A program made the translations under genes and the position numbers. A DNA stretch of 32,000 nt from Candidatus Harpocratesius repetitus (GTDB lineage: Archaea; Asgardarchaeota; Lokiarchaeia; Sigyniarchaeales; Promethearchaeaceae): positions 1,860,001-1,892,000 of the forward strand of contig JAIZWK010000001.1 of NCBI GenBank assembly GCA_021498095.1, read 5' to 3'. Shown here in pieces: positions 6,803 through 11,167 of the stretch; positions within the stretch are counted from its first letter, which is position 1; every line of letters starts with the position of its first letter. The notes beneath the pieces were generated by a model, which searched no databases, had not been told where the DNA came from, and saw nothing but the letters and a program-made list of their open reading frames with translations.

Positions 6803-7483
6803 ATGTACTATAAAATTCCTTCAACACTTCGAGAACAATTAGCTCAACCTATTGGTCACCATTTTATTGGTAACCTTGAGCAGACTGATGAACTAATAGA
6901 CAAATGGATCGCTCAACAAATATCAAAACATACTCTTTCGTCCACCTCTATCTCAGTTCCATTATCTAATTCAAATTTTTCTTCAACTCAAAATTTTAAT
7001 AGTTATTCCAAATATCAACAAGATCTGATTAAAAACCGACCTTCTTTCCCTATCATTTCATGTGTTGGAGATGTTGTTAGTAAAACTTTTATTGAAAAAG
7101 AGTATTTACGACCTTATCTTAAATATTGCTTTATTGATGGAGGTACACAACGAGGGAAAAAAATTGATATTACTCACTATCCAAATTTTAAACAACGTAA
7201 ATTTCATAATCCGGCAGGTTGTATAAATGATGAAATCATTGATTTTATCAAGAAAACACGAGATGATCTTCACCAATATATCGTATGGATTGATGGAGAA
7301 GAAGATCTACTGGTTATTCCACTTATTTTAAAAATAAATCATGGTTTGGTTTTTTATGGACAACCTCCGCTTACCGATCTTGATCCTCAAATTCCTGCTG
7401 GATGTGTTGGGATTCGAATAACCCCCCAAATCCAAAATAAAATCGAGATTTTATTCAATCAATTTATTCTCATCTCAGAGTGA
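6803..7483 (+). CDS. DUF359 family, GTP-dependent dephospho-CoA kinase
   Basis: LREQLAQPIG, CVGDVVS, IDGGTQR, NPAGCI, IDGEEDLLVIP, VFYGQP...GCV motifs; canonical position between spt4 and rps24e. Contains a Ser/Asn-rich insertion. Confidence 0.9.
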   Translation: MYYKIPSTLREQLAQPIGHHFIGNLEQTDELIDKWIAQQISKHTLSSTSISVPLSNSNFSSTQNFNSYSKYQQDLIKNRPSFPIISCVGDVVSKTFIEKEYLRPYLKYCFIDGGTQRGKKIDITHYPNFKQRKFHNPAGCINDEIIDFIKKTRDDLHQYIVWIDGEEDLLVIPLILKINHGLVFYGQPPLTDLDPQIPAGCVGIRITPQIQNKIEILFNQFILISE

Positions 7484-7537: not shown

Positions 7538-7598
7538 TGAGCTGAAAACGAAGGTCACTTACGGTATTACCGTGGGCCACCAGATTCAGTTTAGGTGA
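7538..7598 (+). promoter_or_regulatory. Kink-turn hairpin in the rps24e leader, abutting the SD (AGGTGA 7593-7598)
   Basis: C-stem GCUGAA(7541-46)/UUCAGU(7585-90), 3-nt bulge AAC, tandem G50.A84 and A51.G83, A.A, then G-C, G-C, U-A; apical stem ACGGU/ACCGU. Confidence 0.6.
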
Positions 7599-7603
7599 AA
7601 AAT

Positions 7604-7951
7604 TTGGTAGATATAAACGTTTTAAATAAAAAAGCAAATCCTCTTCTCCATCGTACTGAGATTGAGTTTGAGATTGAGCATTTAGGCTCTGGATCTCCAA
7701 ATCGATTGGAAGTTCGGGAGAAGTTGGCAGCAATGATGACTGCAAAAAGCGAATTGACTTTTATTCGCAGCATGAAACCGCGATTTGGCATACCGCAAGT
7801 TCATGGAATGGCACACATTTATGATGATGAAGCCACTGCTGAAAAAATTGAACCTACATACATCAAGATCCGTAATATGGAAAAAGAAAAACGGAATGAT
7901 GCATGGAAAGCTGAAAAAGCCAAAAAGAAGAAAAAGAAAAAGAAAAAATAA
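7604..7951 (+). CDS. rps24e: 30S ribosomal protein eS24 (S24e)
   Basis: NPLLHRTEIEFEIEHLGSGSPNR..VREKLAA...FG...G.AHIYD. TTG 7604 after the AGGTGA SD is preferred to the track's GTG 7595. Poly-Lys C-terminus. Confidence 0.97.
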   Translation: MVDINVLNKKANPLLHRTEIEFEIEHLGSGSPNRLEVREKLAAMMTAKSELTFIRSMKPRFGIPQVHGMAHIYDDEATAEKIEPTYIKIRNMEKEKRNDAWKAEKAKKKKKKKKK

Positions 7952-7968
7952 TCAGGTGAAAAATTAAA

Positions 7969-8421
7969 ATGAGCATAAATAAAGTAGAAGGCTTACAAAA
8001 AATTTACACAACTGGTTCAATGACAACATATCGTGTACAGAAAGCAGCCAAAATTGCGGATTTATTAAAAGATTTGCATTTAGAAAGTAAATATTTTGTT
8101 ATTTTAGTTGAGGGTAAAAAAGCATCCCCAAATTCATTCATTGACAAAAATGCAGAAATAACCATTCTTCCTAAAATTGCTGGAGGTGGACGAGGTCGTC
8201 GAAATGTTAAAACAAAAGAAAAACGACAAAAACCACCACGCAATAAAAATAAAGGTCCGATGTGGTCTGTTGAGAATGGAAAAGTTGTTCGTAATCGTAA
8301 AAGTTGTCCTAAATGCGGACCTGGGGTCTTTATGGCTGATCATTATGACCGTCAAAGTTGTGGAAAATGCGGATATACACAATTTAAACGGATAAATCGT
8401 AAAATTCCCTCTAAAAAATAA
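7969..8421 (+). CDS. rps27ae: Ubiquitin-like (SAMP/MoaD/ThiS beta-grasp) domain fused to 30S ribosomal protein eS31 (S27ae)
   Basis: aa1-73 end [21 protein letters not shown]....[16 protein letters not shown] (Ubl, codons to 8187). aa74-150 contain a basic extension and [25 protein letters not shown] (S27ae zinc finger). AGGTGA SD at 7954-7959. Confidence 0.93.
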
Positions 8422-8492
8422 ATAAATCAATTATTTTTCGAAATTTTTTTTTATGATTTTAGTTGTTTTTTTATACTTTTTCGTGATTTCAG

Positions 8493-10331
8493 ATGCCACA
8501 ACCATTTCTTTGCTTGGGAATTGAATCCACCGCACATACATTCAGCGTAGGAATTGTAAATGATAAAGGTAATGTATTAGGACTTTCTTCAGATACATAC
8601 ATTCCTCCAAAAGGTGGATTAAAACCGACTGACGTGGTAGAGCATCATTATAATGTATTTGAGAAGCAACTTAAACAAGCTTTACAACAAGCTCAAGTTG
8701 ATTTAAAAGATATTCAATTAATTGCATTCAGCCAAGGACCCGGATTGGGACCATGTTTGAGAGTTGGAGCTGCAGTTGCTCGAACTTTGGCATTAAAATT
8801 AAAAATTCCACTAGTAGGTGTAAACCACTGTATTGCACATGTGGAAATTGGACGGGTGGCATGTAATTGCGATGATCCTCTTACAGTATATGTTTCTGGA
8901 GGAAATACAATTATCAGTGCCTTTGAATCAAATAGATATCAAATATTTGGAGAAACAATAGATATATCAATTGGCAATTTACTTGATATGGTTGCGAGAG
9001 ATCTTGGTATTCCCCATCCTGGTGGTCCAAAGATGGAGCAAATTGCTCTTAAAGGAAAAAATTTCATCAAAATTCCATATATCGTAAAAGGTATGGATCT
9101 TTCATTCTCAGGATTATATTCTTATTGTCGGAAAATGCTTCATGATAATGGATTACTTAAAGAATCAATAACAAAAAAAGCAGTTCAATCCCAGAAAAAG
9201 GTTATTTGTAAAGAAGATTTAGTATACTCTCTTCAAGAAACTGCATTTTCCATGATTGGAGAAGTATGTGAACGTGCTATTGCTCATACTCATAAAAAAT
9301 CTGTTCTACTTACAGGTGGAGTAGCCGCAAATCGACGACTTCAAAAAATCATTGCAGACATATGTGAACATCAGCAAGTTGATTTTAACGTAGTTCCAAG
9401 ACGATTGGCTGGTGATAACGGGGCTATGATTGCTTGGACTGGATTTTTACAATATCAAAACAGCGGAGAAACTTCTATTGAAAATTCTGAAATAATTCCA
9501 AAATGGCGTATGGACGATGTTCCAATTTCGTGGAGAGCTGTTCAAATATCTAAATCAAAATTTAGAGAAATAAGCAATACTTCAAGTTTTAGTGTTAGTT
9601 CTAATCCCCAAATTCAAAATTTATTTTCTCATTTTTTAAGGTCAACCAATGTTGATGGAAAGACGGGAATTTTAAGTAATTTCCTCCAAAATTTTGAAGT
9701 AATTGGGCACGGTGCTGAAGCAGTTTTAGTTCGAATCAATTGGTTTGATAAACCTGCACTTTTAAAATATAGAATTAAAAAATCTTATCGTATTTCAGCA
9801 ATAGATTTACCCTTGCGAATTCATCGAACTATTACTGAAGGACGACTCCTAATTTCTTTGTATCAAGCAGGGATTCCAGTACCTTTAGTTTATGATATAA
9901 TACCAAATGAAGCTGCTTTGATTATGGAATTTATTGAAGGGAATCGATTAAAAGATAAAATTCCAGAATTACCTACTCAAAAAATTCAACAGTATTCTTA
10001 TTTAATTGGAGAATATTTAGCTTTAATGCATAATCTAGAAATTGGCCATGGCGATTTAACCACCTCAAATGTAATCTTAAAGCCTAACCACCAGTTAATT
10101 TTACTTGATTTCGGATTAAGTGTTCCTGATGTTGGAATTGAAGAAAAAGCTATGGATATTCATTTATTTCAGCGCGTAATTAAAAGTTCTCATGGAGATT
10201 ATTTTGATTTAATGGTTCCTGCATTTTTGGATGGTTACAAGCATCAAATTGCTGGTAATTATGAAGAAATTATGGAGCGGGTGGAAAAAATATCCTTACG
10301 TGGGAGATACATCTCTAAATCACTTCGATAA
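8493..10331 (+). CDS. kae1: Bifunctional KEOPS Kae1 (TsaD)-Bud32 fusion, t6A tRNA modification
   Basis: LGIESTAHT, FSQGPGLGPCL, VNHCIAHVEIG, VYVSGGNT, GGVAAN, DNGAMIA (Kae1); GAEA, HGDLTTSN, LLDFGL, E.KAMD.HL (Bud32 kinase). Confidence 0.97.
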   Translation: MPQPFLCLGIESTAHTFSVGIVNDKGNVLGLSSDTYIPPKGGLKPTDVVEHHYNVFEKQLKQALQQAQVDLKDIQLIAFSQGPGLGPCLRVGAAVARTLALKLKIPLVGVNHCIAHVEIGRVACNCDDPLTVYVSGGNTIISAFESNRYQIFGETIDISIGNLLDMVARDLGIPHPGGPKMEQIALKGKNFIKIPYIVKGMDLSFSGLYSYCRKMLHDNGLLKESITKKAVQSQKKVICKEDLVYSLQETAFSMIGEVCERAIAHTHKKSVLLTGGVAANRRLQKIIADICEHQQVDFNVVPRRLAGDNGAMIAWTGFLQYQNSGETSIENSEIIPKWRMDDVPISWRAVQISKSKFREISNTSSFSVSSNPQIQNLFSHFLRSTNVDGKTGILSNFLQNFEVIGHGAEAVLVRINWFDKPALLKYRIKKSYRISAIDLPLRIHRTITEGRLLISLYQAGIPVPLVYDIIPNEAALIMEFIEGNRLKDKIPELPTQKIQQYSYLIGEYLALMHNLEIGHGDLTTSNVILKPNHQLILLDFGLSVPDVGIEEKAMDIHLFQRVIKSSHGDYFDLMVPAFLDGYKHQIAGNYEEIMERVEKISLRGRYISKSLR

Positions 10332-10426: not shown

Positions 10427-11167
10427 TTATTCCATTTGTTCGATTAATTCTTTGGCATTGGGTTTATTGTCTAACATGAATTTGATCCATTGTTTAATGG
10501 CATTTTCTCCACCGGCAAGTAAATCATCTAAATCAACACTGTCGGTCTCAGATTCTCCTTCAATGGCTTCTTTCCCAATTCTTACATTCCAGATTTTCGC
10601 TAACGTTTCCACAGCAGGTGCTCCAAGTTTAGAAAGTCCCCAAATCGCCGACTCTCTTGTATTCTTTTCTTCGTGGATAATCAGCTTAATTAAAGGGTTG
10701 ATGGAGGGTCTCCCAAGTTTGGTTAATGCCCAAACACCGCTGGCTCGAATATCCTTGACCTCGCTATGCAAAGTCTCCAGAAGGGGTTCTACTGCCATTG
10801 CACCCATTTTACTAAGGCTCCAAACGGCTGATGCACGCACATCCTTAGAAATATTTCCTAAAGATCGAATTAACAAGGGAATGGAGGGCTTTCCAATCCG
10901 ATTTAGCGCTTGTGCTGCACTTTTTCTTACATCTGCATTGTCATCACCCAAAGCCTCTACTAAAATTTCCACCGATTCTGGCTTTCCCATTTTTCCTAAA
11001 ATATAAGCCGCAATTCGACGGTATGTATAGTCGTTATGGTTGAGCAATTTGGTTACAGGTTCTAACGCTTCATCTCCCATTGATGCTAATTCATTAGCTG
11101 TATCGAGACGAGTCTTAGTATTGGGATCACCCAACTTTTGAATTAATTCTTCAATTTTTGAACTCAA
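10427..11167 (-). CDS. HEAT (PBS-lyase-like) repeat protein
   Basis: About six ~31-aa repeats such as L.D.N..VR.SAA.AL..IG.P. Confidence 0.9.
   Translation of the reverse strand: MSSKIEELIQKLGDPNTKTRLDTANELASMGDEALEPVTKLLNHNDYTYRRIAAYILGKMGKPESVEILVEALGDDNADVRKSAAQALNRIGKPSIPLLIRSLGNISKDVRASAVWSLSKMGAMAVEPLLETLHSEVKDIRASGVWALTKLGRPSINPLIKLIIHEEKNTRESAIWGLSKLGAPAVETLAKIWNVRIGKEAIEGESETDSVDLDDLLAGGENAIKQWIKFMLDNKPNAKELIEQME

Follow-up and report, generated by a model that had tools for sequence, protein, structure and literature searches.

Why ubiquitin is made as a fusion to two proteins of the ribosome, eS31 and eL40, in almost every eukaryote, whether by chance, for chaperoning or for co-regulation, is an old question. 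A specialist review of 2021 states that in archaea neither eS31 nor eL40 seems to be produced with a ubiquitin-like domain at its N-terminus (PMC8122580). Here we describe an archaeal gene of this kind, found in a stretch of 32,000 nucleotides (nt) from Candidatus Harpocratesius repetitus, of the Lokiarchaeia (contig JAIZWK010000001.1, positions 1,860,001 to 1,892,000; the whole stretch is hereafter called the window). A single open reading frame (ORF) of 150 amino acids (aa), listed at window 7969-8421 on the forward strand, comprises three parts: a ubiquitin-like domain (Ubl) of the ThiS/SAMP2 type that ends in Gly-Gly, a basic extension, and the zinc-ribbon core of eS31, also named S27ae. 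An earlier note, made from the DNA letters alone, had proposed this arrangement as an archaeal analogue of ubiquitin-S27a, and the profile matches and the AlphaFold2 model presented below bear it out. Prior documentation was looked for, and no publication was found: a full-text search of the literature found no paper that describes Ubl-eS31 as a fusion in archaea, many subscription journals lying outside its coverage, so that an earlier mention is possible. What appears to be new is the archaeal case of a Ubl-ribosomal protein precursor; the kind of precursor is itself known.

Eukaryotic ubiquitin-eS31 (Ubi3/Rps31 in yeast, RPS27A/UBA80 in human) shares with the Lokiarchaeial protein a beta-grasp modifier, a Gly-Gly, a basic flexible extension, a C4 zinc ribbon and a similar length and, by analogy, the expected logic of equimolar output and isopeptidase release. 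However, the archaeal modifier is a ThiS/SAMP2 Ubl and not ubiquitin (it has no match to the Pfam ubiquitin family, PF00240), its likely protease would be of the JAMM/MPN+ type, whereas eukaryotes use a USP/UCH deubiquitinase, and the archaeal fusion is limited to one genus-level clade, with a probable independent origin and a predicted cleavage. FUBI-eS30 (FAU, in holozoans) is likewise a lineage-restricted fusion, in which a divergent Ubl is joined by Gly-Gly to a small-subunit ribosomal protein; FUBI is removed during 40S maturation (PMC8354635). It differs in its partner, eS30, in its eukaryotic host, in a cleavage that depends on USP36 and in a Ubl that belongs to the ubiquitin family proper. 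In Giardia, too, a Ubl-type domain stands N-terminal to eS31, but that protein is reported to be uncleaved and its Gly-Gly is altered (PMC11354881), whereas the Gly-Gly is strictly kept in the Lokiarchaeial fusion.

On the archaeal side, the best profile match of the Ubl family is SAMP2 (that of H. volcanii, and that of P. furiosus, which is solved in complex with the JAMM protease JAMM1, 5LDA). The resemblance includes the C-terminal Gly-Gly and, in our model, a Ubl tail predicted to lie in the JAMM groove; the matched SAMP2 proteins, in contrast, stand alone with 66-77 residues, and none is fused to a ribosomal protein. By analogy, roles of the Lokiarchaeial Ubl family in sampylation or transfer RNA (tRNA) thiolation are putative. 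The ubiquitin precursor of Caldiarchaeum subterraneum is another archaeal Ubl with residues past its Gly-Gly, removed by a JAMM/Rpn11-type protease: CsRpn11 processes it, so that such processing exists in archaea (PMC6043591). Unlike the Lokiarchaeial protein, it is a true ubiquitin homolog, encoded in an E1/E2/E3 operon, and carries a short non-ribosomal tail. Makarova and Koonin (2010) described a thaumarchaeal fusion of a Ubl to Cgi121, a subunit of KEOPS, and neighbourhoods shared by Ubl and ribosomal protein S17 genes, and described no S27ae fusion (PMC2948915). These precedents make the link of archaeal Ubls to translation and tRNA modification a known theme. As in Thaumarchaeota, the Lokiarchaeial gene links a ThiS/MoaD-type Ubl to translation/KEOPS genes, since it lies directly upstream of the gene for Kae1-Bud32; the thaumarchaeal partner, however, is a KEOPS subunit and not a ribosomal protein.

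A ubiquitin-like domain and eS31 in one frame

The C-terminal part of the protein is ribosomal protein eS31/S27ae. Pfam Ribosomal_S27 (PF01599) covers residues 100-137 (E 1.3e-20; 73.4 bits, where the curated cut-off is 22.3), NCBIfam S27ae (NF001669) matches at E 5e-21 (74.4 bits, cut-off 54), and Cys113, 116, 131 and 134 form the CxxC...CxxC pattern of a C4 zinc ribbon. A phmmer search of the PDB matched eS31 at E 4e-18, and the best Foldseek matches of the whole model are eS31 chains from archaeal and eukaryotic ribosomes, at 44-63% identity. S27ae is single-copy in this genome (one match) and occupies its orthologous position after S24e and before Kae1-Bud32. Its basic N-terminal extension, of about 24 aa, is present throughout the family of the host genus (family f1), in fused and unfused genera alike, and is absent from solved archaeal eS31 (50-55 aa) and from the neighbouring family f3. 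Thus eS31 of family f1 keeps a basic extension even when no Ubl is attached, though such an extension is termed eukaryote-specific in the yeast literature.

Other eS31 forms were seen along the way. In another Asgard family (genome G290, locus L073), the unfused eS31 opens with a Lys-rich stretch; FVISHLYRVENGK comes next, and BLASTP pairs it with the eukaryotic LALLQYYKVDDSGK. A 126-aa protein from an ENA metagenome (P0021) joins an S24e domain directly to the S27ae zinc ribbon, a different fusion that involves the same neighbouring genes. The eL40 of the genome studied here is unfused, with an open frame of 58 aa.

The N-terminal part is a Ubl of the ThiS/SAMP2 family, a membership that rests on profile results. 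With a profile built from 56 members of its family, the PDB search found P. furiosus SAMP2 (5lda_B, E 1.6e-5), PF1061 (2.4e-5), H. volcanii SAMP2, MoaD and TtuB; Pfam ThiS was matched by 55 of the 56 members and SAMP2 by 42. The single Ubl sequence gave no phmmer match in the PDB. No match to PF00240 was listed for any family member, the fused protein having been scanned to E up to 1, and the sole PF00240-like gene of the genome is located elsewhere. AlphaFold2, run with alignments, gives the order beta-beta-alpha-beta-beta...beta, in keeping with the beta-grasp pattern that the note had seen in residues 1-73, with predicted local distance difference test (pLDDT) values of 83-95 for residues 9-68, about 60-66 for the linker (residues 71-98) and about 83-89 for the zinc ribbon; structure-search matches of the domain are weak, as detailed below.

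The Ubl family is made up of Lokiarchaeial proteins of about 70 aa ending in LP(K/R/H)IAGG, of which an exhaustive HMMER search gave 64 cluster representatives. PKIAGG forms residues 68-73 of the fused protein, with the Gly72-Gly73 codons at 8182-8187, and this Gly-Gly is invariant in 11 fused sequences and in all aligned stand-alone relatives. Besides the fused copy, the genome holds two stand-alone copies (L002, 1495-1704 on the reverse strand, and L003, 1498-1704 on the forward strand). Two types of stand-alone paralog can be told apart: in type A a single residue, namely F, Y, H, C or M, stands between GG and the stop in 11 of 12 genomes examined, a layout that recalls ubiquitin-style precursors, and the stop follows GG directly in the remaining one; type B mostly ends at GG. 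In the fusion genome, the type A paralog adjoins an RNase Z-like gene; the type B paralog adjoins a zinc-ribbon protein that is MBF1-like by eye. Several metagenome members have unusual layouts. Tails of 8-66 aa follow the Gly-Gly of P0024, P0026, P0043, P0068, P0073, P0076 and P0083, which are putative precursors or gene-calling artefacts; these tails hold no Pfam domain, and one is coiled-coil-like. P0053 (205 aa) has three tandem SAMP2-like Ubl repeats, each ending in KKIKGN, a polyubiquitin-like layout without Gly-Gly. In P0065 and P0082 the same Ubl stands at the C-terminus of longer proteins, P0082 carrying a fragment of a Nop (snoRNA-binding) domain before it.

Is the frame real, and is it translated as a whole? 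An assembly error or a private read-through is ruled out by the identical 150-aa protein predicted from independent assemblies (Logan contigs, and one NCBI contig of 83.6 kb) and by orthologs in three species and several metagenomes. In whole-genome searches each of the three species of the genus (G000, G001 and G005) matched over the full length, and a database search added eight further fused proteins of 137-179 aa (53-80% identity), several with precomputed ThiS and Ribosomal_S27 Pfam domains; contigs of at least four JGI metagenomes, and of ENA and Logan assemblies, carry fused orthologs. The upstream gene is S24e wherever it could be identified (the window and L067). A stop codon between Ubl and eS31, which the note had named as a sign of error, was looked for and found in none of the 11 aligned fused sequences. 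The open frame upstream of the eS31 core is not, by its composition, a chance one: the probability that 97 codons 5' of the core stay open in DNA of 32% GC is about 4.5e-4. Among the three species, the Ubl part evolves with a ratio of nonsynonymous to synonymous rates (dN/dS) of 0.07-0.21 (dN 0.13-0.20; dS about 0.9-1.8, with synonymous sites near or at saturation). The basic linker shows no nonsynonymous change between G000 and G001, where 11 of about 17.5 synonymous sites differ. Purifying selection, together with conservation across species, indicates that the whole frame is translated. The Shine-Dalgarno (SD) site and single ORF given by the note stand: AGGTGA lies 9 nt before the ATG of the 7969-8421 ORF, and comparable purine-rich, SD-like sites stand ahead of the Ubl start codon in most of the five further fused genes inspected (AGGTGA, AGGAG, GGGGG, GGGAGG; P0006 has the weakest).

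Predicted processing at the Gly-Gly junction

In the fusion the Gly-Gly is internal, so that proteolysis would be needed to expose it; the predicted cleavage is at the bond G73|G74 (8187|8188). IAGG is invariant in the 11 aligned fused sequences, and across the six genes compared as DNA it is spelled with different synonymous codons. To judge by the paralogs, the cell already cuts after IAGG: a processing protease must exist, because stand-alone paralogs carry residues after GG.

Three JAB/MPN+ (Prok-JAB/JAB) proteins are encoded in the genome. One, of 167 aa (genome 1,654,715-1,655,218), has the residues E28, H88-S-H90, S101 and D104, invariant across eight relatives, and matches CSN5, Rpn11 and a Caldiarchaeum Rpn11-like protein (E 0.002) and, weakly, PfJAMM1 (E about 0.008-0.009). 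The other two are encoded at genome 1,078,751-1,079,455 and 2,402,071-2,402,529; one of them is AfJAMM-like, and one adjoins an E1-like gene. The predicted complex of the 167-aa JAMM with residues 1-92 of the fusion passed its controls, with an ipSAE of 0.81 against 0.33 for the best of them; 58 of 80 solved complexes attain that mark, as do 2 of 110 mismatched pairs. Contact agreement between runs was at least 88% and the pLDDT of the partner at least 72. In the modelled interface, partner residues 67-77 touch JAMM residues 28, 88, 90, 101 and 104, the predicted active site. Five ThiF-family E1 candidates are also present. The cleavable precursor put forward by the note, with its need for a JAB/MPN+ or other deubiquitinase, gains plausibility from the three JAMM genes and the tailed paralogs; the cut itself stays a prediction.

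At genome 2,402,071-2,404,180 (L042), one of these three JAB genes, a Prok-JAB gene of 152 aa, overlaps the end of a gene for a 557-aa ThiF/E1-domain protein, with two small unannotated ORFs nearby. This region may be a separate Ubl-conjugation operon.

We propose, with a probability that we put at roughly 0.7, that the gene encodes a precursor, lineage-specific and convergent with the eukaryotic one, whose 150-aa chain is cut after Gly73 by a JAMM/MPN+ protease into Ubl and eS31. Translation from the ATG at 7969 would yield one chain made of a SAMP2-like Ubl, Gly-Gly and eS31. A JAMM/MPN+ metalloprotease, for which the 167-aa Rpn11/CSN5/PfJAMM1-like protein is the best candidate, would then cut after Gly73, and an activity of this kind would also take off the single residue that follows GG in stand-alone paralogs. 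The products would be equimolar: a free Ubl with a C-terminal Gly-Gly, which would serve E1 (ThiF-family) enzymes in a putative role in sampylation and/or sulfur transfer, and a mature eS31. The latter would start at the basic extension, that is, at the N-terminus that unfused orthologs would have after removal of Met1 by the usual Met-Ala rule. The fuller statement, that a functional precursor of this kind evolved independently within the Lokiarchaeia, in one lineage, as a SAMP2-type Ubl-GG-eS31 released by an Rpn11/CSN5-like JAMM, seems to us, on balance, the better bet.

Distribution, origin and alternative explanations

With the fused protein as query against 400 genomes of the phylum, only unfused eS31 of family f1 reached E 1e-24 outside the genus. 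The Pfam S27 model has a match in 194 of 201 genomes, with 153-residue stop-to-stop open frames around the match in the three genomes of the genus. The other long frames around S27ae (G002, G004, G007, G084, G102-104, G298 and G290) hold Ala/Lys/Pro-rich or basic extensions and no Ubl domain; this inspection covers the genomes with an ORF, G144 having yielded none. A word-index search for longer S27ae-containing proteins returned the same clade only. In G102-G104 (family f9, L068-L070), the long open frames carry Ala/Lys/Pro-rich tandem repeats (for instance AEEAGKKPTAG) before the zinc ribbon.

The other genera of family f1, two closed genomes (6.04 and 4.32 Mb) among them, have an unfused eS31 of 82-87 aa in the same order of DUF359, S24e, S27ae and Kae1 or Kae1-Bud32; the fusion genome is itself a single contig of 4.36 Mb. 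Met1 of the unfused eS31 aligns exactly at the Ubl Gly-Gly of the fusion, so the Ubl with its GG sits exactly in place of Met1. Unfused orthologs begin with M-ARGAKRKVKTKEK, and the more divergent fused forms read ...IAGG-ARGAKRKVKTKEK; the linker start of the window sequence differs. In the Ubl tree, eight of nine fused Ubl domains fall in one clade, apart from both stand-alone paralog groups, in an alignment too short to place the donor paralog; the eS31 tree is a polytomy, the sequences being short. The fusion would have arisen once or a few times in one Lokiarchaeial lineage, when an extra copy of its own Ubl gene was inserted between S24e and S27ae. Its confinement to one genus-level clade, with unfused sister genera at the same locus, indicates that it is recent, lineage-specific and convergent with eukaryotic ubiquitin-eS31, not ancestral. 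The note had left both options standing; the first gains from this distribution and the second loses.

Several points weigh against a convergent, cleaved precursor. Taken singly, the Ubl sequence stays under curated cut-offs (SAMP2 at E 0.0017-0.008 and ThiS at E 0.0026-0.013, and also PRK06437), and the Ubl-only model gives weak matches: the best in Foldseek is MoaD (2q5w, probability 0.96, E 0.066), with TGS domains also found, and VIA matches TtuB at Z 4.4 with a root-mean-square deviation of 2.9 over 60 residues. The complex score may be a recall of the solved PfJAMM1-SAMP2 complex (5LDA), which would speak for likeness and not for binding. A single origin is compatible with the Ubl and eS31 trees, neither of which resolves it. 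The Gly-Gly could be conserved for reasons besides cleavage, and the uncleaved Ubl-eS31 reported in Giardia is a precedent for a permanent fusion (PMC11354881). The Ubl would then be retained on the beak of the small subunit as an extra domain of eS31, where it could be a docking site or a built-in chaperone. Cleavage is, after all, a prediction; the flexible linker of 24 residues (pLDDT 60-66) could keep such a domain off the body of the ribosome, and with two other Ubl copies in the genome a free-Ubl role may not need the fused one. Nevertheless, we consider a permanent fusion unlikely. Its junction exactly recreates the mature N-terminus of unfused orthologs, the paralogs suggest that the cell trims tails after IAGG, and the model puts residues 67-77 against JAMM residues predicted to be catalytic. 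Lacombe and colleagues are said to have found, in 2009, that uncleaved ubiquitin-eS31 is defective. IAGG is invariant despite heavy synonymous turnover, whereas the lack of cleavage in Giardia is attributed to substitution of the Gly-Gly motif (PMC11354881); in yeast, overexpressed eS31 is reported to function without the ubiquitin moiety (PMC8122580).

Public annotation implies yet another explanation, in which eS31 is translated alone, from M98 (53 aa) or from an ATT at Ile70 (81 aa), and the upstream frame is untranslated or unrelated. An in-frame ATG does exist at 8260-8262 (M98), 15 codons before the first Cys, which contradicts the statement of the earlier note that no in-frame start precedes the S27ae core. 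The NCBI annotation of the same genome starts there and gives a 53-aa product (P0094), the length that archaeal S27ae usually has in solved ribosomes; annotations of sister metagenome-assembled genomes give 54, 81 (ATT at Ile70) or 87 aa, and one of them (RLI64119.1, labelled simply S27ae) gives all 150 aa. In addition, GGAGGTGG at 8182-8189 resembles an SD site. However, M98 is an unlikely start: several unfused orthologs have Leu or Ile in its place, no clear SD-like site lies 5' of it in any of six fused genes, and residues 74-97, which it would leave out, are conserved eS31 sequence that is N-terminal in unfused orthologs. As an internal SD site at the Gly codons, GGAGGTGG was rejected, its nucleotides not being conserved and no in-frame ATG, GTG or TTG occurring between G74 and M98. 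Also against separate translation stand a good SD ahead of the start codon of the Ubl in most of the six genes, the absence of a stop between the two parts, and a Ubl part that is under purifying selection and belongs to a clear protein family. We thus find separate translation of eS31 very hard to credit, and the view of the note that eS31 must be made as a fusion holds. Finally, could Ubl-eS31 have been inherited from an Asgard ancestor of eukaryotes, the Ubl being later replaced by ubiquitin? The host is an Asgard archaeon, the proteins are colinear and of similar size (150 aa against 149-157 aa in most of the full-length eukaryotic precursor chains listed), in both a basic stretch lies between GG and the first Cys (at a distance of 39 residues, against 44 in a eukaryotic example), and phmmer alignments to eukaryotic precursors reach into the basic extension. 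Composition-adjusted BLASTP, however, aligns only the zinc-ribbon core with eukaryotic eS31, the Ubl is of the ThiS/SAMP2 type, with no PF00240 match, and its closest relatives are the stand-alone paralogs of its own lineage. Above all, the fusion was found in one genus and close metagenome relatives only, and eS31 is unfused at the same locus in the other genera of the family and also in about 190 other S27ae-bearing genomes of the phylum with listed frames. From this distribution the ancestral origin appears close to refuted, and we give it next to no weight.

Gene neighbourhood and possible meaning of the fusion

Coordinates of the features in and around the gene are collected below. The eS24 gene and the fusion ORF are separated by 17 nt, and the gene order around eS24 is identical in all relatives inspected. 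The note had seen in the adjacent kae1/bud32 a hint of a tRNA-modification link. This does not hold: the adjacency predates the fusion, because the same order of DUF359, S24e, S27ae and Kae1-Bud32 is found in relatives lacking the Ubl, and with a synteny older than the fusion it is no evidence for a link of the Ubl to Kae1-Bud32. The T-rich tract that follows the stop codon and separates the fusion gene from kae1-bud32 is likely, from its sequence, to be an oligo-T terminator of the archaeal kind. Scans for bacterial-type promoters and terminators were uninformative at the fusion locus, and an out-of-frame ORF of 72 aa at 8177-8395 was treated as spurious.

Features of the Ubl-eS31 locus (window positions)
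Feature	Position	Strand	Basis or remark
eS24 gene	7595..7951	+	Pfam Ribosomal_S24e E 2.5e-28; upstream partner, same operon
Shine-Dalgarno-like AGGTGA	7954-7959	+	9 nt 5' of fusion ATG, 3 nt past S24e stop codon
Ubl domain, residues 1-73, ThiS/MoaD/SAMP2 beta-grasp ending LPKIAGG	7969..8187	+	profile matches, AlphaFold2, dN/dS
Basic, probably disordered eS31 N-terminal extension, residues 74-97	8188..8259	+	starts unfused sister-genus eS31 after Met1; AlphaFold2 pLDDT 60-66
eS31/S27ae zinc-ribbon core, residues 98-150, plus stop codon	8260..8421	+	PF01599 E 1.3e-20, NF001669, Foldseek
T-rich tract (T5, T9, T7 runs) after stop	8434..8480	+	sequence only
Kae1-Bud32 (KEOPS) fusion gene, neighbour outside the Ubl-eS31 feature	8493..10331	+	Pfam TsaD E 5.7e-75 plus RIO1/Pkinase

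Some traits of the neighbours may be recorded. eS24 ends in a lysine run (KAKKKKKKKKK), encoded by an A-rich tract at window 7916-7948 just 5' of the fusion gene. The Kae1-Bud32 protein, of 612 aa, is longer than that of a relative (L008, 575 aa), and a Ser/Asn-rich linker between its domains appears to hold the extra length. The DUF359 protein at window 6803-7483 has 226 aa, its relatives 190-209 aa. On the opposite strand, window 10427-11167 encodes a 246-aa protein made entirely of HEAT repeats.

Because public gene models (53, 54, 81 or 87 aa) are shortened, the Ubl half is mostly invisible in protein databases, and surveys of domain architecture that rely on annotation miss the fusion. 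If our reading is right, the Lokiarchaeial gene would be an independent natural replicate of the ubiquitin-eS31 design, with a modifier from another branch of the beta-grasp family, and such a replicate is what separating selection from accident requires. It also offers a simple test system, with one Ubl, one substrate and three JAMM candidates. The coupling of a modifier to eS31 would then have been selected twice, in eukaryotes and in their closest prokaryotic relatives, which would point to a functional reason over a frozen accident: the modifier might act as a cis-chaperone for a very basic zinc-ribbon protein or, alternatively, the fusion might co-regulate ribosome output with the supply of the Ubl.

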